A DNA stretch of 64,000 nt from an uncultured Bacteroidaceae bacterium. Its GTDB lineage: Bacteria > Bacteroidota > Bacteroidia > Bacteroidales > SM23-62. Below the pieces are notes generated by a model. The model was not told the origin of the DNA. It made no database searches and saw nothing but the letters and a program-made list of their open reading frames with translations. A program made the translations under genes and the position numbers. Location of the stretch: the NCBI GenBank assembly GCA_964420035.1, contig CAYQQR010000009.1:32055-96054 (forward strand), given 5' to 3'. Every line of letters begins with the position of its first letter. Positions within the stretch are counted from its first letter, which is position 1. This document shows, one piece after another, positions 4,646-63,082 of this stretch.

Positions 4646-4717
4646 TGGCCGGTTTCTGGTTTCTGGCTGCTGGTCGTTGGCAATGCTTCCAACGGCAGGC
4701 GACAAGCCACCAGAAAC
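4646..4717. repeat. period-7 micro-tandem array forming an imperfect hairpin (GGTTTCT word)
   Basis: Begins directly after the arcC stop: tggccgg|tttctgg|tttctgg|ctgctgg|tcgttgg. The opposed arm ends in ccagaaac (4710-4717) and is followed by a T-rich tract. Confidence 0.8.
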
Positions 4718-4765
4718 ATTTTGAATAATTTTCAAATTATTAAAATCCAAAGTATTTTCTTTTAC

Positions 4766-4773
4766 TACTTTTG
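4766..4773 (+). promoter_or_regulatory. candidate -7 promoter box (TACTTTTG) upstream of argF
   Basis: Matches TAnnTTTG. Its position argues against the TTG at 4771 as the start and favours ATG 4783 or 4792. Confidence 0.35.
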
Positions 4774-4782
4774 CAGTCTAAA

Positions 4783-5793
4783 ATGACAATTATGGCTTTT
4801 AACCTACGCAACCGGCACTTTTTGAAACTCCTTGATTTTACTCCGGATGAGATACGTTTTTTACTGGACCTTTCTTTTACGCTCAAGCGGGCTAAATACA
4901 GCGGTACCGAACAGCACCGGCTGAAGGGCAAGAATATTGCCCTGATCTTTGAGAAAACCTCTACCCGTACCCGCTGTGCTTTTGAAGTGGCTGCCTATGA
5001 TCAGGGTGCCCATGTTTCTTATCTGGGACCCACGGGCTCACAGATCGGTAATAAAGAATCGATGAAAGATACGGCCAGGGTCCTGGGCCGTATGTACGAC
5101 GGAATCGAATACCGGGGCTTTGGTCAGAAGATTATAGAACAACTGGCCAAATATGCCGGGGTACCCGTCTGGAACGGTCTTACCGACGAGTTTCATCCAA
5201 CCCAGGTGTTGGCTGATTTGATGACCATGCAGGAACATTGCGACAAACCCCTTTCAGATATCAAATTTGCCTACCTGGGGGATGCCCGGAACAACATGGG
5301 CAATTCACTCATGGTGGGCGCTGCCCAGATGGGTATGGATTTCAGGGCCGTTGCTCCCAGGCAGAATCAACCCTCTGAAGAGCTGGTCAAATCGTGTGGG
5401 GAAATTGCATCAACAACCGGTGCTTCCGTTACTCTAACAGATGACCCGGGGAAAGGGGTGAAGGATGTTGACTTTTTGTATACCGATGTATGGGTTTCCA
5501 TGGGAGAACCTGAAGAGGTGTGGGAACAACGGATAGAATTAATGAAGGACTACCAGGTTAATTCAGAGCTCCTGAAAAAGACGGGTAATCCCAAAGTTAA
5601 GTTCCTGCATTGTTTACCGGCCTTTCATAACAGGGAAACAAAAGTAGGAGAGGAGATATACAATAAATTTGGCCTGGAATCCATGGAGGTTACCGAAGAC
5701 GTATTCGAATCAAAGTACTCTATTGTTTTCGAAGAAGCCGAAAACCGCGTCCATACCATTAAAGCGGTTATGGTGGCCACCCTGGGTGAATGA
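4783..5793 (+). CDS. argF: ornithine carbamoyltransferase
   Basis: Motifs [13 protein letters not shown] and HCLPAFH. The C-terminus [21 protein letters not shown] is close to enterobacterial ArgF/ArgI. Start is ambiguous (4771 TTG, 4783 or 4792 ATG). Confidence 0.92.
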
Positions 5794-5930
5794 GTCTGGT
5801 TTCTGGCCTCTGGCCTTTGACCTTACACCCACACCCAATCCCCACACCCTCATTCTGAATTCTGAATTAATAAGGCTACTTCCTACTTCCATTAATTTCT
5901 CCCCTCATTTTGTGAATTGTGGATTTTTTT
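5794..5930. repeat. period-7 micro-tandem array containing copy 1 (core) of the dispersed CACACCC element
   Basis: From 5801: ttctggc|ctctggc|ctttgac|cttacac|ccacacc|caatccc|cacaccc|tcattct|gaattct|gaattaa. Continues as ctacttc|ctacttc|cattaat. Confidence 0.8.
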
Positions 5931-5969
5931 TTCATAACTTGTATGAAGTTCAACATTTTACACGTTCAA

Positions 5970-6224
5970 ATGATCTTATATGTCGGTAACATAGCTTATT
6001 CATTATCTGACGAGGACCTGAAAAAAGTATTTGAAGAATATGGAGAAGTTAATGCGGCTAAAATCGTCAGATACAAAAGCAGCGGCAGATCAAAGGGTTA
6101 TGGTTTTGTTGAAATGCTCAATGAAGAGGAAGCGGAAAAGGCTATTGGCGAACTGGAAGGCAAGATCGTTCAGGGCCGGAATTTGAGAGTAGCTAAAGCA
6201 AAAATCCAGACCTTCACGGAGTAA
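5970..6224 (+). CDS. RRM-type RNA-binding protein
   Basis: RNP2 (ILYVGNI) and RNP1 (KGYGFVEM) motifs. The size of about 85 aa is typical of bacterial Rbp proteins. Start placed at the internal ATG (MILYVGN). Confidence 0.85.
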   Translation: MILYVGNIAYSLSDEDLKKVFEEYGEVNAAKIVRYKSSGRSKGYGFVEMLNEEEAEKAIGELEGKIVQGRNLRVAKAKIQTFTE

Positions 6225-6280
6225 GTCTGGTTTTCATCACCCTGTTTTTCAGGACCGGATTCAACAGGGGTCTTTATTAC

Positions 6281-6769
6281 TCAGGCTGTAAAAAACGCTC
6301 TGACAAAGTAATATGTCATAGTCAGGGATGCGGCTAGTTTTAATCCAACACCAGTCAGAAAACCCAGGAAGGAACCAAAGCCGGCTCTGAATGCCTGCCC
6401 GGATTCCTTACCGTCAATTACTTCACCAATAACGGCACCGACGAAAGGTCCCACGATAATTCCCAGGGGTGGGAAAAAGAATAATCCGAGGACAAGACCG
6501 ATCACGGCTCCCCAGATCCCCTTTTTTGATCCTCCGAAACGTTTTGTTCCCCACATGGGCACGATATAGTCCAAAACGGTAACCAGGATGGCCAGAAAGG
6601 CAAAAAACAATAAAAATGCAGCACTGAAATCGCCCCAGCGGGTGAAATGCAACATCAACAGTCCCGCGAAACTCACCGGCGGACCCGGGATCACGGGTAA
6701 GACGCATCCCAGAATGCCCAGGATGATCAATATTATACCTAATCCAACAAGCAGGAAATCTACAACCAT
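6281..6769 (-). CDS. DUF456 family membrane protein
   Basis: 162 aa with 4 TM helices. LGCVLPVIPGPPVSFAG and GGSKKGIWGA patterns are typical of DUF456. Confidence 0.7.
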   Translation of the reverse strand: MVVDFLLVGLGIILIILGILGCVLPVIPGPPVSFAGLLMLHFTRWGDFSAAFLLFFAFLAILVTVLDYIVPMWGTKRFGGSKKGIWGAVIGLVLGLFFFPPLGIIVGPFVGAVIGEVIDGKESGQAFRAGFGSFLGFLTGVGLKLAASLTMTYYFVRAFFTA

Positions 6770-6785
6770 TTCGGTATTGTCAGGT

Positions 6786-6846
6786 GTTGCGCGTTACGGG
6801 TAAGAAATCAAAAACCACGCGTAACCCGTAACCCGAAACACGTAAC
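6786..6846. repeat. period-7 array (CGTAACC word) with hairpin potential
   Basis: acgcgta|acccgta|acccgaa|acacgta|acgatat. The upstream gttacgggt (about 6802) is complementary to acccgtaac. Confidence 0.75.
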
Positions 6847-6852
6847 GATATT

Positions 6853-7203
6853 TTACATCTTCAATCTTACATCTTCAATCACCGTGTACCCCACTTTCTC
6901 AATAGCCCCTGCAATCTCTTCCGGGGTGGTTTTGGTTTTATCGTAACTGACTTTCGCTACCGAACCAAGGTGTGAAGCTTTCACTTCTTTGATCCCTTCT
7001 AATGAGGCTACAGATTCCTGCACGGTTTCTTCACAACCGGTACAGGTCATGCCGTGAACCGTAAATTCTGTTTCAATAAGGTTTTCAGGAGCGATTGCAA
7101 TGCTTTCGGCGGTCCCTTCAGATTCATCCTGCTTTTTCTGCTCTGACTGACAGGACAAAATGAAAACAGGGAGGAGCATGAATAAGATAAACTTTATCAT
7201 CAT
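6853..7203 (-). CDS. heavy-metal-associated (HMA) domain lipoprotein, copper-chaperone-like
   Basis: Lipobox FILSC and the GMTCTGCEETV metal-binding CxxC motif. Confidence 0.8.
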   Translation of the reverse strand: MMIKFILFMLLPVFILSCQSEQKKQDESEGTAESIAIAPENLIETEFTVHGMTCTGCEETVQESVASLEGIKEVKASHLGSVAKVSYDKTKTTPEEIAGAIEKVGYTVIEDVRLKM

Positions 7204-8107: not shown

Positions 8108-8204
8108 AAGGTATGGGATAATTGGCTTCACCGAGCTCGTAAACCCGGTTCCCCGGAGCTTGCTCCGGAATTCAGGGTCCAGGGCTTGCCCTGGGGTCCA
8201 TACC
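8089..8204 (+). repeat. cluster of three GC-rich short-loop hairpins enclosed by a 7-bp outer helix
   Basis: gtccgc-ttcg-gcggac (8089-8104), ccggag-cttg-ctccgg (8153-8168), ccaggg-cttg-ccctgg (8179-8194), with outer ggtatgg (8110-8116) pairing ccatacc (8198-8204). Confidence 0.6.
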
Positions 8205-8225
8205 AATTGATTAAAAGCTATTGCA

Positions 8226-8525
8226 ATGGCGAAGGACACGATGATCAATATGGCTGTTCAGTTTTTACCCCGTTCCAAAGGCATGCATAGCTATGACCTT
8301 GTTGATGAAGCAATTGAGGTTATAGAGGAATCCGGACTGAAACACAGGGTTTGCCCCTTTGAAACCGTTGTGGAAGGTCACTGGGATGAGCTTATGAAAC
8401 TCCTGGAAGCAATGAAGGAGCGGTGTTTTGCAGAAGGAGCTTTGGAAATCCTGGTCAACATCAAGCTGCAGATGAAAAAGGATGCTGATGTTCACATAGA
8501 AGACAAAATGCAGAAATACTCTTGA
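8226..8525 (+). CDS. MTH1187/YkoF-family (DUF77) thiamine-binding-like protein
   Basis: About 99 aa with the pattern MAVQFLP...SY..VDEAIEVI..SGL......FETVVEG.WDE, characteristic of the MTH1187 family. Confidence 0.7.
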   Translation: MAKDTMINMAVQFLPRSKGMHSYDLVDEAIEVIEESGLKHRVCPFETVVEGHWDELMKLLEAMKERCFAEGALEILVNIKLQMKKDADVHIEDKMQKYS

Positions 8526-8559
8526 GCTAACCGCCACTTGGACGATTAACAAAACACCC

Positions 8560-8645
8560 CTCGATTGCCGAACCAAGACTGCATGCCCGACAGGCAGGGA
8601 ACCAAGTTCCGATAGCTATCGGGAAAGGAACTAAGGAACCTGGGA
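8560..8645. repeat. intergenic word array (GGAACC word) with a perfect 14-bp palindrome
   Basis: ccgatagctatcgg (8609-8622), flanked by gggaacc, aggaact, aaggaacc and tgggaact. Lies between convergent genes. Confidence 0.65.
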
Positions 8646-8649
8646 ACTC

Positions 8650-9042
8650 CTAAGATTTATCCTCAAGATCCTCGAAATCTACATCACTGGAATAGTTCTC
8701 GGAAACGGTTTCTTCAACCTGATTCGTTTTTTCCTCCTTGTCTTCGGGTAATTCTGTCATTTCAGGAGCTGAGTCCCGAATGAATTGAATGGCTTCGGCC
8801 AATCCCTCCGAAAACTTGTCGAAATCTTCCTTGTAGAGAAATAACTTGTGTTTTTCGTAGAAAAATCGACCATCCCGGTTGAATCTTTTTTTACTTTCGG
8901 TAATGGTCAGGTAATAATCATTTCTTCGGGTCGCTTTAACATCGAAGAAATACGTTCTTTTTCCCGCCCTGACAGGCTTGGCGAAAATCTCTTCACGTTC
9001 TGAATTTTGCGCGTCAGTTTTCTCTGTTCCTTCGGACATCAT
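8650..9042 (-). CDS. DUF3276 (PUR-alpha-like) nucleic-acid-binding protein
   Basis: The block VRAGKRTYFFDVKATRRNDYYLTITESKKRF....FYEKHKLFLYKEDF.KF is typical of Bacteroidota DUF3276. Confidence 0.75.
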   Translation of the reverse strand: MMSEGTEKTDAQNSEREEIFAKPVRAGKRTYFFDVKATRRNDYYLTITESKKRFNRDGRFFYEKHKLFLYKEDFDKFSEGLAEAIQFIRDSAPEMTELPEDKEEKTNQVEETVSENYSSDVDFEDLEDKS

Positions 9043-9221
9043 GCATTAGTTTAGTTAATGGTTGTCAATTGTTTTCAAAAATAAAAAAATATTTATGAAA
9101 AAGTCATAATTTAGTCGCTTTTGAGCCCTTGTAGCTTAAATAACTCTTATTTAGATAGTTTCAAAAAAAGGACTTGATTGAAGTTTATTTCATCTTTACC
9201 TTTACGAGGTTCTTTTAAATT

Positions 9222-10169
9222 ATGCTTAGCAGGAGATATTTAAGAATAAAAACCTTTCAGATCCTTTATGCCCACTATCGTTCGGGCATAAAAACCATAA
9301 ATCAGTCTGAAAAGGAACTGCTTCACAGCATTGAGAAATCCAGACAGCTTTATTATTTGTTACTGATCTTACTGGTGGACATGGTGCAATACATCCGGGA
9401 AAGGATTGACCTGGCCCGGCAAAAACGGATTCGCGGACCTGAAGACATCAATCCCAATACCCGCTTCGTGAATAATAAATTAATCACACTTATCGAGGAC
9501 AATGTCCACCTGAGAAAAATCATAGAGCAGGAAAAACACTCCTGGGTAAATCATCCGGAAATGATCAGGAAGCTATTTGAGCTCTTTGCTGATACTGATA
9601 TCTACAAAGAATACATGGCAGGTCCGGAGCCCGGTTTTGCTGAAGATAAGAAGGTAGTGATTGATTTTTACAGGTACGTGGTTTATAATTACGAGGACCT
9701 GTACCAGGTGCTTGAGGAAATGAGCATTTACTGGAATGATGAGGCAGATTTCATGATTGAAATGCTTATCAAGGTGATCAAAAAATGCAAGAGTGAAGAT
9801 ACTGAACCGGATTGGTTGGCTTATCCATCAATAGACAAGGAAGATATAGACTTTGTAAAGAAGCTGTTCAGAAAAAGTATTCTTAAGGAAGAAGATTATA
9901 CCGGCTTGATCAATAGCTCGGTAAAAAACTGGGAGCTTGAAAGAATTGCTTTCGTCGACAGATTATTAATGCAAATAGCCATTACCGAGATAACCGAATT
10001 TCCTAACATTCCCACCAAGGTCAGTTTGAATGAGTACATTGAAATTGCCAAATATTACAGCACCATTAAAAGCAGTAACTTCATTAATGGGATTCTGGAC
10101 AACATCATTCAAAAATTAAAAAAAGACAATAAACTTTTCAAAAGCGGCCGGGGATTGATAGGAGAATAA
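9222..10169 (+). CDS. nusB: transcription antitermination factor NusB (long Bacteroidota form)
   Basis: N-terminal RRYLRIKTFQILYAH and a C-terminal NusB core (WELERIAFVDRLLMQIAITEI..FPNIPTKVSLNEYIEIAKYYS..KSSNFINGILD). Confidence 0.85.
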   Translation: MLSRRYLRIKTFQILYAHYRSGIKTINQSEKELLHSIEKSRQLYYLLLILLVDMVQYIRERIDLARQKRIRGPEDINPNTRFVNNKLITLIEDNVHLRKIIEQEKHSWVNHPEMIRKLFELFADTDIYKEYMAGPEPGFAEDKKVVIDFYRYVVYNYEDLYQVLEEMSIYWNDEADFMIEMLIKVIKKCKSEDTEPDWLAYPSIDKEDIDFVKKLFRKSILKEEDYTGLINSSVKNWELERIAFVDRLLMQIAITEITEFPNIPTKVSLNEYIEIAKYYSTIKSSNFINGILDNIIQKLKKDNKLFKSGRGLIGE

Positions 10170-10222
10170 TGATGTTGCCAGGGTTGGTTTTTATTACTTA
10201 CTTTGCATGATCATTTGACAAT

Positions 10223-10651
10223 ATGAACCGGTATATTGGGTTTATTCTATTGCTTTTGTCCGGACTCTTCTCATGCCAGATGCCTGACGAGAAGAATAAT
10301 TCGGCAGAAAATCAGACTGTGCAGGGAGGACATCCGGAGATAGATTTCATTACGGTGCAACATGATTTTGGTGAGATCACCGAAGGTGAAAAGGTGGCCT
10401 ACAGCTATTTTTTCACCAATACCGGGGAAGCTCCCCTTATTATCAACCGGGTAGATGCCGGTTGTGGTTGCACGGCTCCCGAATGGACCGATGAACCCGT
10501 ATCAGCCGGTGAAAAAGGTTTTGTAAAAGTGGTATTCGACAGCAGTGACCGATGGGGAAGGCAGAATAAATCAGTTAGTGTCAGAAGCAATGCCGTCGAT
10601 AATCCGGTCGTGGTCCTTCGTTTTACAGCGGAAATAATCAATACGCAATAA
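10223..10651 (+). CDS. DUF1573 domain lipoprotein
   Basis: Lipobox LFSC and the hallmark GCGCTAPEW motif. Confidence 0.85.
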   Translation: MNRYIGFILLLLSGLFSCQMPDEKNNSAENQTVQGGHPEIDFITVQHDFGEITEGEKVAYSYFFTNTGEAPLIINRVDAGCGCTAPEWTDEPVSAGEKGFVKVVFDSSDRWGRQNKSVSVRSNAVDNPVVVLRFTAEIINTQ

Positions 10652-10674
10652 TTTTATTTACTAATTAAGAAAAA

Positions 10675-10992
10675 ATGGATCTATTTATTCTATTGCAAGC
10701 ACAGCAGCCGGGAGGGAATCCTTTAACATCCTTTTTACCCCTAATCCTGATCATACTGGTATTTTATTTCTTCATGATCCGGCCCCAGGTAAGAAGGCAA
10801 AAAGAGCTGAAGAATTACAGGAGACAGTTGTCCAAAGGAGACAAGATTGTCACCACAGGTGGAATCTATGGAAAAGTAACAGACGTTAAAGAACAGTCGG
10901 TGACGGTTGAGATCTCAGATAATATCCGGGTAAAGATTGATAAAAACGCGGTTTTGAGAGACACTTCAGATCTGGGTAGTCAGCAAAAATAA
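10675..10992 (+). CDS. yajC: preprotein translocase subunit YajC
   Basis: 105 aa with a single TM helix. FFMIRPQVRRQKE and GDKIVTTGGIYGKV motifs. Confidence 0.9.
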   Translation: MDLFILLQAQQPGGNPLTSFLPLILIILVFYFFMIRPQVRRQKELKNYRRQLSKGDKIVTTGGIYGKVTDVKEQSVTVEISDNIRVKIDKNAVLRDTSDLGSQQK

Positions 10993-10993
10993 A

Positions 10994-11030
10994 TGGTTCT
11001 CGGTTCTCGGTTAATTGTTCCGGGTTTTTA
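10994..11030. repeat. period-7 array (GGTTCTC word) after the yajC stop
   Basis: ggttctc|ggttctc|ggttaat|tgttccg|ggttttt. Confidence 0.7.
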
Positions 11031-11063
11031 ATCAAGTTCTGATTCTTTGATGAACTTTTGTAT

Positions 11064-12092
11064 ATGGAGGATAAAAAACGTCGGGATAGTATTGAGTCCA
11101 GGTTGTTCAGGCCTTTTTTCCGACTGACGCAAAGGGAAAAGGTGAAACTGACCAGGCGCCTCTCCATTTTTGTATTTTTTGTTCTCGTATCCGTTTTACT
11201 CTGGTTTATCAATGCGCTGGGAAAGGACTACAATACAGAACTTAGCTATCCGGTTCGTTATGTGAATATGCCCCGTAACAAAATACTGGTTAATAATCCA
11301 CCGGATCAACTCATTATTACTGTCAATGGATACGGCTATACCCTGCTTCGCTATAAGCTGGGTGCCCGTGAATTACCTCTTGTATTCAATGTTAATTCAT
11401 TTGCACTGAACCGCGTTGATACCGGTCAGGGTGACTATTTTTTCATTTTGTCGGATTTTGCCAAGGGCCGGCTCGAAAGTCAACTGCCGGGTGAATTCGA
11501 GATACTTGATATCCAACCTGATTCTTTGGTATTTCATTTAACCGATATATCCAGAAAAATGGTACCTGTGCGATCCCTGGTGGAAATCGAACTGGAGAAA
11601 CAGTTCATGCTCCGGGGTAAACCGAAAATTGAACCGGACAGCATACAGGTGGGCGGTCCCCAAAATATTATAGATACCCTGAATGCAGTATATACTGAAG
11701 AAATAAAAATCCGTTCCCTGGATAAATCAACCTCTCTGACCGTTGAACTGAAGCCTGTTCCGAAAGTTCAATTTGGAGTTCCAGGAGTAAACCTGAGCCT
11801 GCAAGTCGAAAAATATACAGAATCCGGTTTTAAGGTTCCACTCGAGACCATCAATGTTCCCGATTCTCTTGTCATGAAAACTTTCCCATCTGCAGTAGAT
11901 GTTTCATTTTACGTGGGACTTGATAATTATGAGTCTGTGCAACCCGGCTTATTTCATGCATATGTAGATTATAAAAACATTGAGGATTTGACAGAAAACC
12001 GAATTCCCGTAGTTCTTGACCGGGTTCCGGAAGCTGTTTCCAACGTGAAGTACGGTCCTAGAGAGGTAGAGTTTATCATCGAGAAAAAATGA
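11064..12092 (+). CDS. YbbR-like domain protein
   Basis: N-terminal TM helix followed by repeated beta-rich YbbR-type segments. The position upstream of coaE is common in Bacteroidota. Start taken at the first ATG (track start 11058 is TTG). Confidence 0.6.
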   Translation: MEDKKRRDSIESRLFRPFFRLTQREKVKLTRRLSIFVFFVLVSVLLWFINALGKDYNTELSYPVRYVNMPRNKILVNNPPDQLIITVNGYGYTLLRYKLGARELPLVFNVNSFALNRVDTGQGDYFFILSDFAKGRLESQLPGEFEILDIQPDSLVFHLTDISRKMVPVRSLVEIELEKQFMLRGKPKIEPDSIQVGGPQNIIDTLNAVYTEEIKIRSLDKSTSLTVELKPVPKVQFGVPGVNLSLQVEKYTESGFKVPLETINVPDSLVMKTFPSAVDVSFYVGLDNYESVQPGLFHAYVDYKNIEDLTENRIPVVLDRVPEAVSNVKYGPREVEFIIEKK

Positions 12093-13414: not shown

Positions 13415-13500
13415 GTCACAGAGTAAAATTGAGTTACACGAAGCAGTTTGATCATTTTTCTCTGTGGTTCTCCTTTTTCTCTGTGCTTCTGTGAATCCTA
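13415..13500. repeat. period-7 array (CTCTGTG word) with opposed cacagag arm
   Basis: ctctgtg|gttctcc|tttttct|ctgtgct|tctgtga. The complementary cacagag lies at 13417-13423. Confidence 0.65.
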
Positions 13501-14130: not shown

Positions 14131-14177
14131 AATTTAGAATTTCGTTTCGAATCTCGAATTTAGAATTTAGAATTTCC
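14131..14177. repeat. AGAATTT heptamer array overlapping the mazG stop codon
   Basis: aatttagaatttcgtttcgaatctcgaatttagaatttagaatttcc. The last four mazG codons and the stop (NSKF*) are encoded by the array. Confidence 0.8.
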
Positions 14178-19734: not shown

Positions 19735-21059
19735 TCGATATAGCGTTTCACATCAAATTTCCGCTTGCAACCCTTATAACTCATATAACGGATCTTGCCG
19801 AAGACGGGCCGCTTGCTCCATGCCCGGTCATGAACGCCTCCGATCGACCATGCACATCCAACGTAACCGTTGGGATCCCTTCCGTCGAGTTCATATTTGT
19901 CATTCAGATAAATGCTAAAGGACAGGGCATCCTCGGGTGTCGGGGTCCATTCCAGTATCTTCTTGGCCCAATACATACGCGTGTAGCCATGCATTTTACC
20001 GGTTTTTATCATTTGAAGCTGGGCCGCGTTCCACAAAGGGTCATGCGTTTTGCCCTCTTCGAATTCATGACGTTCATAAAGGTATTCCCGCTCATCTTTT
20101 CGATGCTCATTCAGGGAGTTTCGTGCCCAATCCGGGAATCCTTTGAAATTGTCATAATCAGGATTATAGAAACAGAAATTATCCGACAATTCCCGCCGGA
20201 TGATCAATTCCTCAAGGAAGGCATCGACCGCTTCCTGATCCTGCCCGCTTTTAATGACCTCAATGGTAATCCTTTGTGCTGAGATCTGGCCGAAATGGAG
20301 GTAAGGCGACAGATGGGATGCCGCATCCCGGTTGGGATCATTCCTCTGATCCCGGTATTTTGAAAGCCGGTTGTGAATGAAATCCTCCAGCTGTTTTTGC
20401 GCTGCGGCTTCACCCGGAATTAACCAATCCACTTCAGGGACCGATTCGTCCGCTTTGAGGCCGGAACGAACCTGATCCCAATCAACTTTCTCATTCTGAT
20501 TTGCACCGGAGCTACGGGAAGGAAGTTCCGGAAACGCATCCAGAAAATATTCCAGTTTGCGTTTTATCTTGGGCCGGATGGTGTAGGCTGCGAATTCTGT
20601 TTTGTCCGATGTTGTTCTGGCAGGGACGATGTTATGACTGTCCACTTCATAGAGGGGAATCTCTAAGTGATCCCCTATCTCTTTTTTCCAGGCCCTTTTG
20701 ATCTTTAAAGGATCAAAGTCACACACCAGGGCTGCACAATCAACAGAATTCAGAAAATCGGGCAATACTTCGCCAGGTTCACCCTGCAAAAGGAAAAAGG
20801 GGATATTGCGGTCCACGAGTTTTAATTCGACTTCCTGTAATCCCTGAAGCATGAACCCGTATTGCCGCATAGCAGCCCCCTGGAATTCAGGGACCAGGAT
20901 AAAGACCACACCCAGCTTCATTTGGTTTTCTTTGGCCAGTTGACTGGCAAAGACCAGGCTCCAGTTGTCCTGTACCCGCTGATCACGGCTCATCCAGTAA
21001 AGAATAATTTCACCTTTTAATCGGCCTTCTTTAAGTAGTCGTACACGTTCCGGTATCAT
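19722..21059 (-). CDS. phr: class II CPD deoxyribodipyrimidine photolyase
   Basis: 445 aa with a C-terminal FAD-binding block (MHGYTRMYWAKKILEW...ELDGRDPNGYVGCAWSIGGVHDRAW). Confidence 0.9.
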   Translation of the reverse strand: MIPERVRLLKEGRLKGEIILYWMSRDQRVQDNWSLVFASQLAKENQMKLGVVFILVPEFQGAAMRQYGFMLQGLQEVELKLVDRNIPFFLLQGEPGEVLPDFLNSVDCAALVCDFDPLKIKRAWKKEIGDHLEIPLYEVDSHNIVPARTTSDKTEFAAYTIRPKIKRKLEYFLDAFPELPSRSSGANQNEKVDWDQVRSGLKADESVPEVDWLIPGEAAAQKQLEDFIHNRLSKYRDQRNDPNRDAASHLSPYLHFGQISAQRITIEVIKSGQDQEAVDAFLEELIIRRELSDNFCFYNPDYDNFKGFPDWARNSLNEHRKDEREYLYERHEFEEGKTHDPLWNAAQLQMIKTGKMHGYTRMYWAKKILEWTPTPEDALSFSIYLNDKYELDGRDPNGYVGCAWSIGGVHDRAWSKRPVFGKIRYMSYKGCKRKFDVKRYIDQYL

Positions 21060-44393: not shown

Positions 44394-44419
44394 AAAACCT
44401 AGGTGATGAAAAATGAAAA

Positions 44420-44476
44420 ATAAAACCGTAACCCGTATCCCGTAACTTGTAACATTTAGAATTTAGAATTTAGATT
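44420..44476. repeat. CGTAACC + AGAATTT heptamer arrays in the dctQ-dctM spacer, overlapping the dctQ stop
   Basis: aaccgta|acccgta|tcccgta|acttgta|acattta|gaattta|gaattta|gattcat. The dctQ C-terminus ESKF* is encoded by the array. Confidence 0.8.
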
Positions 44477-44942: not shown

Positions 44943-44950
44943 GATTTAAA

Positions 44951-45934
44951 TTATTGCAGGGACTGTATTTCCCGGATCAGGGTGTAGATCTCGGGTTCGT
45001 CCTTGTATTGTTCATATACTATTTTGGCCCTTTCTGCAAAGGGTTGTTTATCCGGATGTATGATCCTGATACCTGCTTCCTCAACAGCCTTCAGCGAAGC
45101 TTGCTCCGATTCAATCCATAGTTTTCTCTGATGTTTTGCCGATTCCCGGGCCGCTTGCTGGAGCCATTCCTGCTCCTGTTCCGTCAGTTCATCCCAAATG
45201 ATCTTGCTGATCAGTAACACATCGGGAATGGTACTGTGTTCGTCCAGGCTATAATATTTGCAGACTTCATAGTGATGCGACAGGTAGAAGCTGGGCGGGT
45301 TGTTTTCGGCGCCGTCAACCACACCCCCCTGCAAGGCTGTATATAACTCTCCCCATGAGATGGGTGTGGGCGAACCGCCGAGGGCCTTGACCATGTTTAC
45401 CGCGGTCGGACTCTTCATCACCCGTATCTTCAATCCCCGCAGGTCATCCGGATGATGAACAGGGGTTTCCTTGGTATAAAAAGATCGGCTGCCGGCATCG
45501 TAAAAGGTCAGGCCACGCAACCAAAAAGGTTCACTGGACAAAAGGAGCTTTTCCCCGACTTCCCCTTCCATAACCCGGTAGGCGTGTTCCCGGCTCTTGA
45601 TGATATAGGGGAGGGTAAGGGCCTTGTATTTTGGGGTAAAGCCTTCCATGATGGCGGCGGAAACCTTGGTCATGGCCAGAGAACCGATCTGCAACAACTC
45701 AACACATTCCCTTTCCGATCCAAGCTGCGCACTGGCGTAGATATGTATTTCCATCCTTCCTCCCGAAAGCTCACGCAAGCGCTCAGCCATGTACTCCATT
45801 CCTTTGTGGACCGAATGGGAGGGGTCCAGGCCATGACCCAGCTTTAAGATGGTTTTTTCCTGTTGATGACAGGAAGCGGAAATCATGAGAAAAAGAATAA
45901 GAATAGGAATAAAAGGTGTACGCGGCTTTATCAT
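44951..45934 (-). CDS. dctP: TRAP transporter substrate-binding protein (DctP family)
   Basis: 327-aa lipoprotein (ISASC) of DctP-like size and order. The kduI/eda context suggests a uronate or keto-deoxy-sugar-acid substrate; that assignment is inference. Confidence 0.85.
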   Translation of the reverse strand: MIKPRTPFIPILILFLMISASCHQQEKTILKLGHGLDPSHSVHKGMEYMAERLRELSGGRMEIHIYASAQLGSERECVELLQIGSLAMTKVSAAIMEGFTPKYKALTLPYIIKSREHAYRVMEGEVGEKLLLSSEPFWLRGLTFYDAGSRSFYTKETPVHHPDDLRGLKIRVMKSPTAVNMVKALGGSPTPISWGELYTALQGGVVDGAENNPPSFYLSHHYEVCKYYSLDEHSTIPDVLLISKIIWDELTEQEQEWLQQAARESAKHQRKLWIESEQASLKAVEEAGIRIIHPDKQPFAERAKIVYEQYKDEPEIYTLIREIQSLQ

Positions 45935-47562: not shown

Positions 47563-47563
47563 G

Positions 47564-47618
47564 ATTCAGGATGAGGCTGTGGGGATTGGGTGTGGGTGTG
47601 AAGAGCTTAAGAGCCAAA
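47564..47618 (-). repeat. dispersed 55-bp element, copy 2 (reverse orientation)
   Basis: The reverse complement tttggctcttaagctcttcacacccacacccaatccccacagcctcatcctgaat matches 61145-61199 at 52 of 55 positions. Starts 2 nt after the kduI stop. Confidence 0.9.
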
Positions 47619-47631
47619 TAGCAGCAGGGCT

Positions 47632-47708
47632 GTCATACAACAGTCATACGATGGTCATACGGTTGTCATACAATGGTCATACGGTTGTCATACAATGGTC
47701 ATGCGGTT
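47632..47708 (+). repeat. 7 x 11-bp tandem repeat (GTCATAC + 4 variable nt; 22-bp higher-order unit)
   Basis: gtcatacaaca gtcatacgatg gtcatacggtt gtcatacaatg gtcatacggtt gtcatacaatg gtcatgcggtt. Confidence 0.95.
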
Positions 47709-47782
47709 GTTTTTGGTTTCTGGCTACCAACGACCAGCAACAAGCAGCAAGTGACCAGAAACCAGAGGCCGGCCACCGGCCA
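47709..47782. repeat. period-7 array with opposed GGTTTCTGG / CCAGAAACC arms
   Basis: From 47734: ccagcaa|caagcag|caagtga|ccagaaa|ccagagg|ccggcca|ccggcca. ggtttctgg at about 47715 is complementary to ccagaaacc at about 47755. Confidence 0.8.
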
Positions 47783-47929
47783 TACCTTGGCAATGGAGAC
47801 TGACTTTAATGTGGACGCGGGATGCAGAAGCCTGTGCAAAAGTGAATCATGTACTAAAAAATAATGGAAATAAACTTGTCTGGAATATATCAGGCTGAAT
47901 CATGAATTCTGAATTAAATATACTTTTAA

Positions 47930-51390: not shown

Positions 51391-52121
51391 ATGAAAAAGT
51401 CAATATTCTATCTATTCCTGTTCAGTCTTGTAACGGGCTCTCTGCTATTCAACGCCTGCCAAAAAAATAAAGCTCCGACCTGGATCATCTCCAAGCCGGG
51501 TCAAATGTGGCAGGTTGCGGAATATACCCCTTCTGCCAGTACCCCTGATTTTACAGTCCGCATTACCGGTGAGGCACAGGAGATCACGGCATGGGGTGCC
51601 TGTTTTAATGAACCGGGGTGGACGGCACTGCAAAGCACAGGGCAGGAGCAAAGAGAACAATTGCTGAAAGAGTTCTACCATCCTGAAGAAGGATTGCGTT
51701 TTACGGTGTGCCGGATGCCTATAGAGGCCAACGACTATGCTACGGAATGGTATTCCCTGAATGATTCAGCAGGAGATATGGAAATGGAGCATTTCAGCAT
51801 TGAACGGGACTGGAAAAATCTTATTCCCTATATCAAAGCAGCTATGGAGTATAATCCGGAACTGAAGATCTGGGGTTCCCCCTGGTGCCCCCCGGCCTGG
51901 ATGAAAGTCAATAAGCACTATGCCTGCCGGCCTGCTGAAGTCAATAACCTGCCGGAATCGGGGGCAGGGCAGGAGGGAAGGACCCAGTTTATCATGGAGC
52001 AGGAATACCTGGAAGCCTACGCGGACTATTTCTCGAATCTGTAGAAACGGGAGATGACAAACTGGGGGTTGACTTGCCGGCACGGTCCTTCCAGACACTG
52101 CTGGTTCCCGGTGTTAAATAG
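51391..52121 (+). pseudogene. GH30-like glycoside hydrolase with large internal deletion and frameshift
   Basis: The N-terminal 217 aa look GH30-like (ITAWGACFNEPGW, WGSPWCPPAWMK, EAYADYF) and stop at 52044. A different frame at 52047-52121 reads TGDDKLGVDLPARSFQTLLVPGVK*, which looks like a GH30 C-terminus. About 250 codons are absent, including the expected catalytic Glu region. Confidence 0.7.
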
Positions 52122-52179: not shown

Positions 52180-53550
52180 GTGGAGTTCATTAACAGAAAA
52201 AGAGAACTTGATAGAATCAGGCGCTTGCTTGCCAAAAAAGAAAGTATGTTGTTTGTCCTTTATGGCAGGAGGAGACTTGGCAAGACAAGGTTATTGCAAC
52301 AAATAAGAAATGGAAGTGTTATTTATTTTACTGCTGATCAAAGTGAAATGCCACTGCAGATTTCATCTTTTTCCAAAATCATCGGAAATTATATAAAAGG
52401 TTTTGATTCAGTTATTTATCCCAATTGGGAAAGCTGTTTACAGGCACTTATTGATCGGTTAGTCAGGAAAGTAACCATTGTTTTTGATGAATTCCCTTAT
52501 TTGGTAAAGAATGCTCCGGAACTACCCAGTATCGTCCAAAAACTATTTGACAATCGTTCCGGGTTATCATTCCATCTGTGGCTGTGTGGATCATCACAAC
52601 AGATGATGCATAATCTTGTAATTAATGTTAATTCACCGCTGTATGGAAGGGCTAATGAGATAATCAAGCTTTCACCAATGAGTATTTATTACCTTCAGGA
52701 AGCGATCGGGTGCTCATTTATTGAAGCGGTTGAAGAGTATTCTATCTGGGGTGGGATTCCCCGTTACTGGGAATTGCGCGTACAGGAAAAAAGCATGAAG
52801 AAGGCGATCATCAATCATATCCTCGACAGCAACGGCATTCTTCATGAAGAACCATTACGGTTATTCCTTGATGACAGCAGGGATACCGTACAGATGTATA
52901 CCCTCGTTACGCTTATAGCCTCAGGTATGCATCGGCTATCTGGGATCGCTTCAAGGATCGGAAAACCGGCAACGCATCTCCACAGGCCACTACAGCGATT
53001 GATAAATCTGGGATATCTTAAGAGAGAAATCCCTTTTGGAACCTCTCCGCGAAAAGCAAAGAGAACATTGTACAAAGTTGCCGACCCTTTCATTAATTTC
53101 TATTTCACTTATGTGGTCCCGGATAAAACATCCCTGGAATCAGGAATGGCTGAACGGGTATATGAAGATGTTATTGTGCCCGGTTTTGCAGAATATTGTT
53201 CCGGATTTTGGGAAGATATTTGCAGGGCTTCGATTCCTTTACTTTTTGGAGAAAAGCTTTTTTCTCCGGCTTCTCGTTGGTGGAGCACCCCTGGTGGAGA
53301 AAACCATTTTGAGATTGACATCGTGTCGTCTTCAAGGGATAAAAATGAAATGATCGTTGCAGAAGCTAAATGGTCTGAATCTGTTAATATCAACTCATTA
53401 TGTCATCAAATGGATATTAAGATTGAGCATTTACCCGGAAAAGACAATAAAAAAATTCAAAAAGTACTTTTCCTAAAGTATAAACCTGAATACGTCCCTC
53501 CGGGTTATTCAGTTTTTACACCCGAAGATGTGATAAATGCCTTTCAATGA
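52180..53550 (+). CDS. AAA-type ATPase with C-terminal DUF234 (Arch_ATPase family, COG1672-like)
   Basis: GTG start. FINRKRELDRI...LYGRRRLGKTRLL P-loop, DEF Walker B (IVFDEFPYL), and a DUF234-like C-terminus (FE.DIV.......IVAEAKW). Visibly more AT-rich than its flanks. Confidence 0.8.
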   Translation: MEFINRKRELDRIRRLLAKKESMLFVLYGRRRLGKTRLLQQIRNGSVIYFTADQSEMPLQISSFSKIIGNYIKGFDSVIYPNWESCLQALIDRLVRKVTIVFDEFPYLVKNAPELPSIVQKLFDNRSGLSFHLWLCGSSQQMMHNLVINVNSPLYGRANEIIKLSPMSIYYLQEAIGCSFIEAVEEYSIWGGIPRYWELRVQEKSMKKAIINHILDSNGILHEEPLRLFLDDSRDTVQMYTLVTLIASGMHRLSGIASRIGKPATHLHRPLQRLINLGYLKREIPFGTSPRKAKRTLYKVADPFINFYFTYVVPDKTSLESGMAERVYEDVIVPGFAEYCSGFWEDICRASIPLLFGEKLFSPASRWWSTPGGENHFEIDIVSSSRDKNEMIVAEAKWSESVNINSLCHQMDIKIEHLPGKDNKKIQKVLFLKYKPEYVPPGYSVFTPEDVINAFQ

Positions 53551-53563: not shown

Positions 53564-53594
53564 GTGAGGGCATGACCGCCGGTCATACCCTCAC
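53564..53594 (+). terminator. strong hairpin after the ATPase gene
   Basis: gtgagggcatgacc-gcc-ggtcataccctcac gives 13 bp plus one mismatch. No U-tract follows; instead the CCTTAAA word module is next (53595-53612). Confidence 0.5.
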
Positions 53595-53706
53595 ACCTTA
53601 AATCCTTAAAACAAAAATCTCCTTCTTTTACTTGTAATTTTGATTTCTGTAATATATTTGAATCATAATTGAGTGCGGCATCGCTTGGTGCTTAATGGAT
53701 TGAACA

Positions 53707-59270: not shown

Positions 59271-59319
59271 TACATTGTATTTCCAGAAGAATAGTGTTGA
59301 CAAGAATCTTAAATTGTAT

Positions 59320-60192: not shown

Positions 60193-60387
60193 ATGGACAA
60201 GTTACGAAATCATGCAATAAACCCTTGCTCAAGAAGCCCGGAAGTCTGTTTGTAGTTTTTCAGGACTGCCAATGCAAACTGCTACTGTCACTGTTCCATG
60301 GACGAACCACCAATTCGTTTATTTTATTAATCCTGAGGCAATGAGACGTTGAGACTCTGAGACAAATTCTATCTTTGTTAAAAAAAT

Positions 60388-61125: not shown

Positions 61126-61410
61126 CTATGTTGCTCTTCTGCTCTTTGGCTCTTAAGCTCTTCACACCCACACCCAATCCCCACACCCTCATTTTGAATC
61201 GCGGATTTCGTTCAGGATTTCTGATTTAGAATTTAGAATTTCTTCCTCGCGTCCTTCGCGCCTTCTTTGCGCTCTTCGCGGTTCAATATTTTAGCGTCTC
61301 AATGTCTCAGGTCCAGGGACCAGTGGCCAGGGACCATAAGCCAGGAACAACTGCATGACTGCCTCCTGCCACCCCAAATCTTTAAATCCTAAAATCACTT
61401 AAAGCCTAAA
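61126..61410. repeat. long composite spacer of concatenated period-7 words, including copy 3 of the 55-bp element (61145-61199)
   Basis: tgctctt|ctgctct|ttggctc|ttaagct|cttcaca|cccacac|ccaatcc|ccacacc|ctcattt ... gatttag|aatttag|aatttct|tcctcgc|gtccttc|gcgcctt|ctttgcg|ctcttcg ... cagggac|cagtggc|cagggac|cataagc|caggaac ... aaatcct|aaaatca|cttaaag|cctaaaa. Confidence 0.85.
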
Positions 61411-61457
61411 ACTGGCATATTCTTTGCATCACATTACCGGACCCATTCTTCTTCATC

Positions 61458-61895
61458 ATGAAAAAATTCATCATTCTGTTATTGGGAATGCTCATGACCT
61501 CCGGGGCCTTCTCCCAGGTATTCACCTATCGCTACAATCCCTACACGGGTATGAACAAAGACCAGCTGGAGCTGGCCCTGGAACAGGCCCATAAAATGAA
61601 ACGCAACGGTATGATCTGGACCGGGGTGGGGACCGGTATGCTGGTCGGCGGAGGCATCATGATGCCGGACGGGATTCAGGGCCTGACCGGTGATGGAACC
61701 TACGATGCCCTGAACTTCGGGGCCGGACTGGGAATCATGACCCTAAGCGGTTTTCCTCTGGGATACGGACTCTATGCCTGGATCGCCGGAAACGAAAGAG
61801 CCAACATGATCGAGATCGAACTGCTGGCTTTTGATAAGGGGAAGCTCAAGCTTGAACCCACAAAAAACGGGATAGGATTGGTGTATAAGTTTTGA
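61458..61895 (+). CDS. hypothetical secreted/membrane protein
   Basis: Signal peptide MKKFIILLLGMLMTSGAFSQ and two Gly-rich hydrophobic segments. Confidence 0.5.
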   Translation: MKKFIILLLGMLMTSGAFSQVFTYRYNPYTGMNKDQLELALEQAHKMKRNGMIWTGVGTGMLVGGGIMMPDGIQGLTGDGTYDALNFGAGLGIMTLSGFPLGYGLYAWIAGNERANMIEIELLAFDKGKLKLEPTKNGIGLVYKF

Positions 61896-61976
61896 TTATG
61901 GTAACTTGTCGCAGGCTTCTGGAACTAAATTTGCATGAAACAGGGTGGATTATTGGATTAAAAACTATACTATACC

Positions 61977-62192
61977 ATGATACAACATGACCCCAGACCC
62001 GGCAGAATCGTTTTGTTCATGTGGCTGCTGACCGTACTGATCAGTATATTTTCAGGGATACTATCGTGGAACCTGGTAGACCCGGACAGTTTCTGGGGCG
62101 GACTGCTCTTCCTGATCCTTTGGGGAATTCTCTCCAAGCTGGGGCATTTTATCTGCTTCAGCTTTCTCATTGATATATTCAGGAGATGGTAG
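61977..62192 (+). CDS. hypothetical small two-TM membrane protein
   Basis: 71-aa ORF with two hydrophobic helices. No other support. Confidence 0.3.
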   Translation: MIQHDPRPGRIVLFMWLLTVLISIFSGILSWNLVDPDSFWGGLLFLILWGILSKLGHFICFSFLIDIFRRW

Positions 62193-62269
62193 TTTGTACT
62201 GGACTTTTGTGACTTTAAGCTTATAATTAGGATTTTACAGTTTCCCGTTCGCCCAAATACTCGGGATCA

Positions 62270-62340
62270 CTGCTTCTCACTTCGCTGATACTTACTGCTT
62301 CCTGCTACTTACTACTTCTCCTAATAATTACTAACTTTCA
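62270..62340. repeat. period-7 array (TACTGCT/TACTACT word)
   Basis: cactgct|tctcact|tcgctga|tacttac|tgcttcc|tgctact|tactact|tctccta|ataatta|ctaactt. Confidence 0.7.
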
Positions 62341-62343
62341 TAC

Positions 62344-62850
62344 ATGATTCGGTGCGCAACATTTCTATTCATCGCTCGTGTTTTACTTCTCGCTAAACCA
62401 GCAATGGCGGATGTCTTTCCCGTTTCCTCAAAAACCCTCGGGGGAATTTCTTTTTCCATTGAGCTCCTGGGCTCTTATGAGATCGGGTTGGGATCGGATT
62501 TTGCCTTGCTGGCCTGGGGTGGGGGAGCCACGGTGTTCTCGCCTTACGGTGCGGAATTTTTTGCCGGGCCGGAAGCGGCATTGGAAGTAAGAAAATACTT
62601 CGCGAGAAAGGATAACATGGCCTGGGCATTCAGCTTTTATTCCGGGGTAGCCTACAATTACCTGGATGAACCCTACGGGGCATTTACACCAGGAATAAAA
62701 CTGACCCGGAAAATCTCCCACAACCGGCTGATGCAGTCGGAACCCTATATCAGTCTGTCCTATCCCTTCTACTCAGACGGGGAACGACCCTACCTGCCGG
62801 TCCTGACCTTCGGGTATCGCTTTGTTCTGGAATGGGGCCCCAAGGTATAA
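62344..62850 (+). CDS. hypothetical secreted protein (possible small beta-barrel)
   Basis: Signal peptide and alternating aromatic/Gly strands. 168 aa. Confidence 0.45.
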   Translation: MIRCATFLFIARVLLLAKPAMADVFPVSSKTLGGISFSIELLGSYEIGLGSDFALLAWGGGATVFSPYGAEFFAGPEAALEVRKYFARKDNMAWAFSFYSGVAYNYLDEPYGAFTPGIKLTRKISHNRLMQSEPYISLSYPFYSDGERPYLPVLTFGYRFVLEWGPKV

Positions 62851-63082
62851 ACGATTAAGAGCATTAGAGCTGAAGTGCTGTTATGCAATCCTCATGCAGT
62901 TGACATGCGATTGCCATACGATTGTTTCTGGCTATTAATAAAGATTACGGGAAACGTTAATAATACTACAGCCTGAAAGACTAGACCACTAGATCAGGGC
63001 AGAGACCATGCGGCAATCCCAGTACCGAATTCTCCTCCTCGCTGAGGACGGAACAATCTTAAAACCTTAAATCCTTAAAACT
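62851..63082. repeat. composite word-array spacer between convergent genes
   Basis: atgcaat|cctcatg|cagttga|catgcga|ttgccat|acgattg|tttctgg ... tcttaaa|accttaa|atcctta|aaacttc. The CCTTAAA word is also at 53595-53612 and 61381-61410. Confidence 0.65.

Follow-up and report, generated by a model that had tools for sequence, protein, structure and literature searches.

What occupies the spacers between the genes of this chromosome, and what put it there? The stretch of DNA considered here, which we call the window, comprises 64 kb of ordinary chromosomal DNA (46.5% G+C) from an uncultured Bacteroidota bacterium, and a reading of it from the sequence alone had proposed that degenerate heptamer arrays fill most of the spacers that follow gene 3' ends. 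In the analysis reported here, a period of about 7 nt, a location on the 3' side of genes and a vocabulary of words shared between spacers and between strands were confirmed as real and statistically strong. We favor, at slightly better than even confidence, the interpretation that these spacers carry lineage-specific heptameric simple-sequence repeats (SSRs) resembling the short tandemly repeated repetitive (STRR) sequences of cyanobacteria, which would be resized by slippage, copied as blocks and tolerated past stop codons.

Genes were called from long open reading frames (ORFs) together with Pfam matches, and spacers of at least 40 nt were kept for the periodicity test. This gave 4380 nt of spacer in all, of which 3071 nt lay in spacers that contain a gene 3' end (tandem and convergent) and 1309 nt in divergent spacers. 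Identity at each lag was compared with 300 dinucleotide-preserving shuffles, tandem arrays were located by Tandem Repeats Finder (TRF), and recurring blocks were defined by BLAST between spacers. Over all spacers, lag-7 identity was 0.329 against 0.272 in the shuffles (z +8.5), with further excesses at lag 8 (z +6.0), lag 14 (z +4.2) and lag 6 (z +3.8). When the spacers were split by class, the lag-7 value in the 3'-containing spacers was 0.342 against 0.263 (z +9.4; lag 8 z +5.8, lags 6 and 14 both z +4.6), while the divergent spacers reached a z of only +0.9. Both the period-7 signal that the sequence-only reading reported and its observation that most divergent promoter spacers are free of arrays are borne out by this split. 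Tested one by one, period 7 was significant in 8/14 tandem, 2/7 convergent and 1/9 divergent spacers. The one exception that had been singled out, the divergent spacer between the CPBP and ThuA genes, does carry an array, at 60342..60363.

Exact arrays, defined as lag-7 runs of at least 8 matches, numbered ten in the window, and all ten fell in spacers, which make up about 7% of the sequence. Their density, 1.56 per 10 kb, is about five times the 0.34 per 10 kb found in a background set of 80 other Bacteroidota loci (1.22 Mb in total), where exact period-7 arrays are mostly AT-rich chance matches and the pooled lag-7 effect size is about one-ninth of that in the window. Exact runs of at least 10 matches numbered five where about 0.1 were expected, a count that covers 64 kb only. 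The period-7 excess extends beyond exact arrays, since shorter runs of 5-7 are also enriched: matches within such runs numbered 97 at lag 7 and 135 at lag 8, compared with 12-27 at the control lags 5, 9 and 10, 7 at lag 6 and 54 at lag 11.

The extent of the arrays had been overstated, as those located by TRF cover about 20% of 3'-spacer bases and are present in 12 of 22 3' spacers, each array being 15-45 nt long. Of the 15 sites that had been listed, three (8108, 8526 and 59205) gave no significance in the lag test. Lag 7 is the strongest period overall, but period 8 dominates at 13415, 53551, 60193, 61126 and 62851 and period 11 at 47563. Since a period-7 array can be made to fit every register, reading the spacers in a single continuous 7-nt register is no more informative than the lag-7 statistic itself.

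The arrays draw on a small vocabulary: GGTTTCT/YYYCTGG, CGTAACC, ATTTAGA, CACACCC, CCTTAAA, ATTCTGA, GCTCTT, TGAGAC and GTCATAC. Units are 7 nt long, with some of 8 and 11 nt, and are repeated 2-4 times, a relative reaching about 9 copies. Different spacers have 65 12-mers in common where 2.8 were expected (maximum 8 in 100 shuffles), and for the words listed in the sequence-only reading the density in 3' spacers is roughly 4 to 100 times that of coding DNA, in agreement with its claim that the same words recur in unrelated spacers and on both strands. By BLAST between spacers, these regions are mosaics of a few recurring modules in both orientations, each block occurring at 2-4 loci within the 64 kb and also in L084, a contig from a relative, and every recurrent word is found both ways round relative to transcription. 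YYYCTGG/GGTTTCT arrays lie at 4646, 5794 and 47715-47776 in both orientations, blocks of ATTTAGA are identical over 18-19 nt at 14156, 44454 and 61224, ACCTTAAATCCTTAAAAC stands at both 53595 and 63064, TGAATTCTGAATTAA at both 5856 and 47903, and CATAC-type 11-mers at 47631 and 62900. The CGTAACC element occurs together with an A-rich leader at 6796-6846, at 44400-44448 and in L084, that is, at three non-orthologous loci in two genomes. Copies of one word vary in length and flanks and thus have no fixed element ends.

One module, which we call F1, is a 54-60-nt composite of GCTCTT-type octamers and a CACACCC-type core. It is present at 61139-61199 (+) and at 47563-47624 (-), with 96% identity over 54 nt, and a 36-nt part lies at 5825-5860. 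The core, CCCACACCCAATCCCCACACCC, is a four-tract C-rich (G-quadruplex/i-motif) sequence that contains one GGGGATT, the Nostoc-type heptamer; it is C-rich on the + strand at 5828-5849 and 61167-61188 and G-rich on the + strand at 47573-47598. Only two of the core copies match the four-tract motif, the third having lost one tract, and the other vocabulary words have no G or C tracts and are not quadruplex-prone. An exact scan for the F1 core gave 0 matches in GTDB representative genomes and only 2 chance matches in JGI metagenomes, one on a cyanobacterial and one on a eukaryote-like contig. A phage vector for the words was considered and dropped, as no sign of one was seen: in a scan of viral contigs, (ATTTAGA)3, (CGTAACC)3 and (GGTTTCT)3 gave 24, 14 and 21 matches against the 43, 2 and 19 of scrambled heptamers, and the matched contigs do not carry the window's vocabulary. 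Heptamer triplets, the scrambled ones included, proved common throughout metagenomic DNA, in keeping with a wide spread of heptamer SSRs.

Orthologous sites were compared in relatives. The contig L085 (NCBI GCA_054920435.1) is syntenic with window positions 400-7200, and its proteins are 33-81% identical to those of the window. Its spacers are array-free and compact compared with their window counterparts (53 vs 146 nt, 6 vs 83 and 16 vs 52), the 6-nt spacer being the orthologue of the 83-nt HMA-DUF456 spacer that holds the array at 6790..6846. The 76 nt that separate OTCase from DUF456 in L085 form a clean convergent terminator; in the window, this interval holds an additional RRM gene and an array spacer of 188 nt. 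L084, from another sample (run SRR31818008) and with an OTCase 89% identical to that of the window, carries arrays in the two orthologous spacers as well, yet not the same arrays. Its upstream spacer carries a CGTAACC element in place of the window's GGTTTCT hairpin. Downstream of OTCase, the first 20 nt and the last 33 nt are the same as in the window, while the middle holds 8-9 YYYCTGG units and a CCAACTG-type array against the 2-3 units, F1, ATTCTGA and CTACTTC of the window.

The spacer between dctQ and dctM is 69 nt long in the window, 25 nt in L092 and L093 and 7 nt in L090, which comes from run SRR17165169 and whose DctQ is 87% identical. The window's block of about 73 nt, made of three arrays, is placed right before a retained ancestral TAGGT and is absent in L090 and in L092/L093; set against the empty site of L090, the insertion (TCTAAAT... 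to ...TCATCACC) showed no terminal inverted repeats (TIR) or target-site duplication (TSD) by eye at this one site. A more distant relative, L091 (JGI 3300056889, DctQ 74% identical), has the same dctPQM-histidine-kinase-FGGY synteny and its own octamer arrays (NNNTGGAA) after gene ends; its vocabulary is unlike that of the window and its habit similar. Degenerate octamer arrays lie in L091 at 2075-2130 and 9073-9115 (GTGTGAAG.. and GAAGATTG..), and this contig also has an 803-nt spacer full of GC-rich hairpins. The window's words are thus reused in L084, but L085 is array-free and L091 has a vocabulary of its own. These orthologous sequences show the arrays to be gained DNA with fast turnover, a trait of the window's lineage and a few related ones.

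Some of the gained DNA reaches into genes. The mazG and dctQ genes, which are unrelated and both on the minus strand, have the same tail, ..SKF followed by the stop, encoded by (TCTAAAT)n at 14160-14176 and 44463-44474. MazG orthologues align to residue 256 only, without the array-encoded tail. Since orthologues of the two proteins end earlier or differently, repeat DNA has rewritten their C-termini and supplied stop codons. The HMA-domain gene closes with the 14-mer TTACATCTTCAATC duplicated exactly in tandem; the duplication spans the stop and rewrites the last residues, whose frame it shifts because 14 is not a multiple of 3, and the resulting C-terminus differs from that of the L085 orthologue.

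The sequence-only reading had further suggested that opposed blocks often form long imperfect hairpins and that the arrays serve in termination or 3'-end protection. Opposed-block hairpins are present at three loci only: 4652-4717, a long imperfect hairpin of -32.3 kcal/mol (z -3.15) followed by AUUUUG, with its inverted AGAAACC partner at 4710-4717; 47715-47763 (z -3.3); and 6790-6840 (z -2.2). Elsewhere, array-rich stretches fold no better than shuffles, or worse (44394-44476, z +2.2; 61126-61265, z -0.24; 5794-5900, z -1.5), and averaged over whole spacers the fold z comes to -0.8 in the 3' class and -0.4 in the divergent class. Ordinary sequence beside an array makes up the strong hairpin at 53564-53594; U-rich tails follow this hairpin and the one at 4652-4717, but most arrays lack such a hairpin and tail. 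A consensus terminator scan of 1-16 kb found no terminator-like site inside any spacer. As array-rich spacers fold no better than shuffles, a general role in termination or 3' protection is unsupported, although a few opposed-orientation arrays may have been co-opted as terminators. Rfam at gathering thresholds (window, L084 and L085) and ARAGORN (window) returned nothing, and so the spacers are not known non-coding RNAs (ncRNAs).

Two observations on RNA stand beside these tests. An 80-aa RRM-domain RNA-binding protein is encoded at 5982-6224, between OTCase and DUF456, with the 188-nt array-rich spacer upstream of it; gene calling in syntenic L085 gave no RRM gene at the matching place. In the stretch 8108-8225, two 16-nt hairpins (CCGGAGCTTGCTCCGG and CCAGGGCTTGCCCTGG) lie side by side and share their loop, enclosed by GGTATGG..CCATACC; the stretch shows no period 7, and no Rfam family matched it. 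A conserved ncRNA common to this stretch and the tail of L085 was considered and dropped, as BLAST gave 12-16-nt matches only.

Chance, base composition, faulty assembly or decayed coding sequence might be held responsible for the arrays. Two-copy heptamers do arise by chance in AT-rich DNA, as the matches in the 80 background loci illustrate, and any sequence can be divided into heptamers. Such an origin is hard to square with the excess over dinucleotide shuffles in the 3' spacers and with the confinement of every exact array to a small fraction of the window. Four short-read Logan contigs from two runs (SRR7048220 and SRR7048218) are identical to the window across arrays, over 8154-11974, 43703-45892 and 61300-62297 (contigs L001, L094, L095 and L219). 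Because these independent assemblies match the window, the arrays are no assembly artefact. The relative from another sample has the same words, and the periods are 7, 8 and 11 rather than 3, 6 and 9, which agrees with the earlier view that the arrays are non-coding and not decayed coding sequence. We regard an artefact as extremely improbable and, as far as the present analysis allows, excluded. A different proposal is that the arrays function at the RNA level as elements of 3' untranslated regions (3' UTRs) or intercistronic regions, serving as RNA-binding-protein sites, in Rho loading or termination, or as mRNA stabilizers; in one form they would be tandem sites for an RRM-type or cold-shock-type single-strand binder, with about one protein per heptamer. 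Consistent with this, arrays begin at stop codons or overlap them, co-directional spacers have a mild and not decisive pyrimidine excess on their sense strand (0.55 vs 0.47 in coding DNA), the sense orientation of F1 is rich in C and free of G at 2/3 loci, and the arrays are unstructured and so would be accessible. The RRM gene adjoins an array-rich spacer and has no called counterpart in L085, CspB binding to heptamer repeats has been noted (PMC4679880), and the three opposed arrays give hairpins and then U-rich tails. Yet all recurrent words occur in both orientations relative to transcription, and the arrays are not conserved, being missing at orthologous sites of relatives with 87% and about 60-80% protein identity. 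The terminator scan was empty inside spacers and the folding z was at least 0 in most array spacers. On balance, we consider an RNA-level function fairly unlikely.

The dispersal of the blocks raises the prospect that they are non-autonomous mobile elements, similar to REP/BIME or to MITEs (miniature inverted-repeat transposable elements), inserted downstream of genes by a dedicated enzyme (a RAYT-type HUH transposase, another transposase or a reverse transcriptase) encoded elsewhere in the genome. Near-identical blocks at unrelated loci in both orientations (the 54 nt of F1, ATTTAGA, and CGTAACC with its leader), the clean insertion at the dctQ-dctM junction relative to L090, the presence of the vocabulary at non-orthologous sites of a second genome, and a BIME-like mosaic arrangement on the 3' side of genes and in convergent spacers all speak for this. 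The absence of fixed ends, the lack of TIR or TSD at dctQ-dctM, the differing lengths and flanks of copies of one word, and the prevalence of direct repeats over palindromes argue against it, and no transposase, RAYT or reverse transcriptase was found among the 55 window genes, a weak point given a 64-kb sample. We judge mobile elements of this kind unlikely. Quite improbable, in our estimate, is that an active, sequence-specific process writes or pastes heptamer arrays just downstream of translated regions, instead of passive slippage and drift. The shared vocabulary, the block gained at a stop since the divergence from L090 and the reuse of words in a second genome could reflect such writing, for which a templated-synthesis or break-repair enzyme (a reverse transcriptase, primase-polymerase or template-switching polymerase) or an end-less class of mobile element could be candidates. 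If true, the same process would probably also underlie cyanobacterial STRRs and the heptamers of Xanthomonas and Nostoc.

The account that we favor remains that of STRR-like repeats resized by slippage and copied as blocks. New arrays would arise, and existing ones change size, when units of about 7 nt slip during replication or align unequally, and whole blocks would occasionally be copied to other loci through recombination or template switching without defined element ends. Selection would leave arrays only where they are harmless, after or overlapping stops and between co-directional or convergent genes, even inside an operon, and would purge them from coding DNA and promoter-bearing divergent spacers. 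Most arrays are probably neutral or selfish padding of 3' UTRs, and they would naturally abut stop codons if the ancestral spacers were only 6-25 nt long, as in the relatives. A slipped-strand origin, which the sequence-only reading had thought plausible, agrees with the exact duplications and with the 2-3 units that stand against 8-9 in L084, but it does not explain identical 18-54-nt blocks at unrelated loci.

Several points weigh against this account. Slippage gives no reason why unrelated loci, and a second genome too, should carry identical words and blocks, and the copying step that we infer and the restricted vocabulary are a gap that the account has in common with cyanobacterial STRRs. 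An array lies within about 8 nt of a stop codon, or overlaps it, in 9 of 13 array-bearing 3' spacers by hand count, a proximity that could instead mean targeting or function. The four-tract C-rich motif of the F1 core could likewise be functional, and some arrays give good terminator-like hairpins. No short-term instability was seen, the Logan contigs of the two runs being identical, though consensus contigs make this a weak test. The material covers only 64 kb of the host genome and, for the nearest relatives, two contigs of roughly 1 kb. The individual arrays are collected in Table 1.

Table 1. Repeat arrays and blocks of the window, with the support for each and its surroundings
Position	Strand	Array or block	Support	Surroundings and relations
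4646..4717	+	YYYCTGG/GGTTTCT array TGGCCGG TTTCTGG TTTCTGG CTGCTGG TCGTTGG	TRF 4651-4674, period 7; lag-7 p=0.002	Begins directly after carbamate-kinase stop; homologous to 47755-47776(-) and L084
5794..5890	+	Post-OTCase module mosaic: YYYCTGG x2-3 (5794-5816), C-rich F1 core CACACCC.. (5825-5850), ATTCTGA x2.4 (5852-5870), CTACTTC x2 (5876-5890)	TRF rows; lag-7 z 5.7, p=0.002	36 nt, 97% to 61164-61199 and 94% to 47564-47599(-)
6790..6846	+	CGTAACC array (6817-6846) with inverted partial partner (6790-6803)	TRF 6820-6846; lag-7 z 5.2	83-nt spacer between HMA and DUF456 genes, both minus strand; element recurs with its A-rich leader at 44418-44448
6853..6880	-	Exact 14-nt tandem duplication, TTACATCTTCAATC x2	TRF period 14, 100%	3' end of HMA-domain gene
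10995..11012	+	GGTTCTC x2.6	TRF; local lag-7 window p=0.002	2 nt past yajC stop; identical in L001
13455..13492	+	Pyrimidine-rich degenerate array TTCTCTGTG.., period 8-10	TRF 13458-13490; lag 8 z 3.2	Between TerB/DnaJ and DUF5606 genes
14131..14176	+	AATTTAG/ATTTAGA array	TRF 14131-14175	Enters 3' end of mazG (minus strand), coding last residues and stop (..GNSKF, stop); 18-19 nt identical to 44454-44471 and 61224-61242
44401..44474	-	Three-array block of ~73 nt; sense strand TCTAAAT x3, GTTACGG-type x4, TTTCATT-type x3	TRF 44406-44425, 44426-44446, 44454-44474; lag-7 z 5.8	Between dctQ and dctM; directly precedes ancestral TAG and gives the DctQ tail; identical in L094 and L095
47563..47624	-	F1 composite block (GCTCTT-type octamers and CACACCC-type core), inverted	54 nt, 96% to 61139-61192	Abuts KduI stop
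47631..47710	+	GTCATACAATG/GTCATACGGTT array, period 11, higher-order 22 at 95%	TRF; lag 11 z 7.1
47715..47776	+	GGTTTCT .. AGAAACC opposed blocks, then CCAGAGG CCGGCCA CCGGCCA	Homology to 4645-4666 and L084	CCAGAGG CCGGCCA CCGGCCA is the reverse complement of the 4646-type array
47903..47917	+	TGAATTCTGAATTAA module	BLAST between spacers	Same as 5856-5870
53595..53612	+	ACCTTAAATCCTTAAAAC, period 8	18 nt identical to 63064-63081; lag 8 z 2.9	Adjoins the ordinary strong hairpin (53564-53594) in convergent spacer
60342..60363	+	TGAGACNN x2.8, period 8	TRF; lag 8 z 3.2	25 nt upstream of ThuA start; no other divergent spacer has a clear array; GTCTCA, its reverse complement, stands again at 61290-61306
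61132..61411	+	Densest mosaic: TGCTCTTC x4 (61132-61163), F1 core (61164-61199), ATTTAGA x2.6 (61224-61242), CTTCGCG-type octamers (61247-61283), GTCTCA x2 (61290-61306), CCAGGGA/14-mer (61313-61345), AAATCCTA x4.4 (61376-61411)	TRF rows; lag 7 z 4.5, lag 8 z 5.2	Downstream of ThuA
62279..62330	+	Pyrimidine-rich array ACTTCGCTGATACTTACT, period 17, CTTACT/CTTCCT sub-units	TRF; local lag-7 p=0.002	Upstream of 62344 gene
62900..62924	+	TTGACATACGA x2.3, period 11	TRF	Related to 47631 array, sharing CATACGAT by eye; match unreported by BLAST between spacers
63054..63088	+	CTTAAAAC/CCTTAAA array	TRF; 18 nt identical to 53595-53612	Overlaps stop codon of minus-strand gene 63083-63994

The genes around these arrays are those of an ordinary bacterial chromosome. 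Pfam matches point to housekeeping and carbohydrate functions and include FtsK, carbamate kinase, OTCase, nusB-yajC-coaE, PhoH and SAICAR synthetase, PorP/SprF of the type IX secretion system (T9SS) with a CHU_C/SprB adhesin, a TRAP transporter, GH3, GH94 and a sulfatase. The best relatives of the NusB-like protein among 185,579 species representatives are about 50% identical and all come from metagenome-assembled genomes (MAGs) of Bacteroidales or Bacteroidota, with Marinifilum at 45%; the named matches of two further window proteins are Prolixibacter, Prolixibacteraceae and Mariniphaga. In a homologue search with DUF5606 the top relative was 66-67% identical, and this search yielded no close genome.

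A few other features were noted along the way. The short-read contig L219 (61300-62297) has both ends inside array regions, its start lying within the 61132 mosaic, which suggests that the arrays fragment short-read assemblies and recur elsewhere in the genome. A 71-aa ORF at 61977-62192, which looks like a small hydrophobic membrane protein and was called as a gene in a Logan contig, lies inside what had been taken as a 448-nt spacer, so that this spacer is really two, of 81 and 151 nt. The GH30 ORF at 51391-52044 (217 aa) covers only positions 3-114 of the 348-position catalytic-domain profile. After it come 135 nt of spacer and an ATPase/DUF234 gene (52180-53550), and an inserted gene may have interrupted and truncated a glycoside hydrolase at this place. 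In L076, a locus on Bacteroidota MAG contig JBAXLI010000061.1, (TTAGGGA)x6 at 20914-20957 continues up to where the fetched locus stops, some 380 nt before the contig end, and forms a telomere-like heptamer array.

How do these arrays relate to repeats described before? The STRR heptamers of heterocystous cyanobacteria are 7-nt units of which a few words occupy many dispersed intergenic loci in both orientations; Mazel et al. reportedly described them in 1990. The window shares the 7-nt tandem unit, the small reused word set, the dispersed intergenic loci and both orientations, and the analogy drawn in the earlier reading is apt as a description. In contrast to STRRs, the window's arrays are far shorter, at 2-4 units, include units of 8 and 11 nt and chain several different words into mosaics, the canonical STRR1-3 words CCCCAGT, TTGGTCA and CAACAGT are never tandem in the window, and the host is an uncultured Bacteroidales bacterium (nearest Bacteroidales MAGs and Prolixibacter, with the T9SS genes PorP/SprF and CHU_C) instead of a heterocystous cyanobacterium. 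The REP/BIME sequences of enterobacteria and pseudomonads are imperfect palindromes of 20-40 nt recognized by RAYT transposases. Like them, the window has short non-coding modules of varying order and orientation after genes and between convergent genes, but these are mostly direct micro-tandem repeats without a palindrome, blocks are opposed at three loci only, and RAYT is not among the genes of the window. MITEs have a TIR and a TSD, neither of which is visible by eye at the dctQ-dctM insertion.

Closer parallels come from other heptamers. Rehm et al. 2015 (PMC4692102) described GGGNATC and GGGGA(C/T)T heptameric repeats in the non-coding DNA of Xanthomonas and Nostoc, which are enriched between co-directional ORFs, under-represented between divergent ORFs and mostly 0-50 bp from, or overlapping, a stop codon. 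Their inverted copies can form stem-loops, they vary strongly between close relatives, and neither an association with insertion sequence (IS) elements nor a function was found (PMC4692102). The window shares the co-directional enrichment, the divergent depletion, the stop-codon proximity and the locus-level variation between relatives (against L084 at OTCase and L090 at dctQ-dctM). The Xanthomonas and Nostoc repeats differ in being one G-rich word family with a four-unit preference (G-quadruplex), whereas in the window only the F1 core has four tracts. MacGregor 2015 (PMC4679880) reported direct repeats of TAACTGA and accompanying heptamers in Beggiatoaceae, cyanobacteria and five Bacteroidetes (Gramella, Aequorivita, Elizabethkingia, Flexibacter and Paludibacter), with "larger assemblages of heptamer repeats" inside single intergenic regions, and close relatives with the same gene neighborhood have shorter repeat-free spacers (PMC4679880). 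The earlier reading, which knew of no description in Bacteroidota, is corrected by this report. The likeness lies in intergenic heptamer direct repeats in Bacteroidetes and in relatives with shorter repeat-free spacers. TAACTGA itself, however, occurs four times singly in the window and never in tandem, the Beggiatoaceae repeats lie just upstream of start codons in fixed orientation whereas the window's arrays follow stops in mixed orientation, and the Gramella and Aequorivita arrays are long, with up to 43 copies.

As cited in these two papers (PMC4679880 and PMC4692102), Mrazek 2007 found heptanucleotides to be the commonest class among the long simple-sequence repeats LSSR5-11 and proposed polymerase slippage as their cause; as relayed there, LSSR5-11 are sporadic across lineages and reflect a general tendency to expand rather than function. 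LSSRs are individually longer than expected, while the window's arrays are individually short and significant only collectively, and slippage alone yields no shared vocabulary. Judged by its words, then, the window is an analogue with a vocabulary of its own and not a sequence member of the STRR or TAACTGA families. It extends a known phenomenon to a new clade and reveals no new mechanism.

Heptameric repeat families have been known for decades in cyanobacteria, xanthomonads, Beggiatoaceae and a few Bacteroidetes, with neither origin nor function established. The lineage described here adds a clean comparative case, with an empty site in L090, a filled three-array site, the vocabulary in a sister genome, and rewritten C-termini and stops of housekeeping genes. 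Such orthologous sites, some empty, some filled and some resized at a protein identity of 87-89%, could help to tell slippage and block copying apart. The arrays have practical effects as well: longer 3' UTRs, changed tails of the proteins DctQ, MazG and HMA, and breaks in short-read assemblies.

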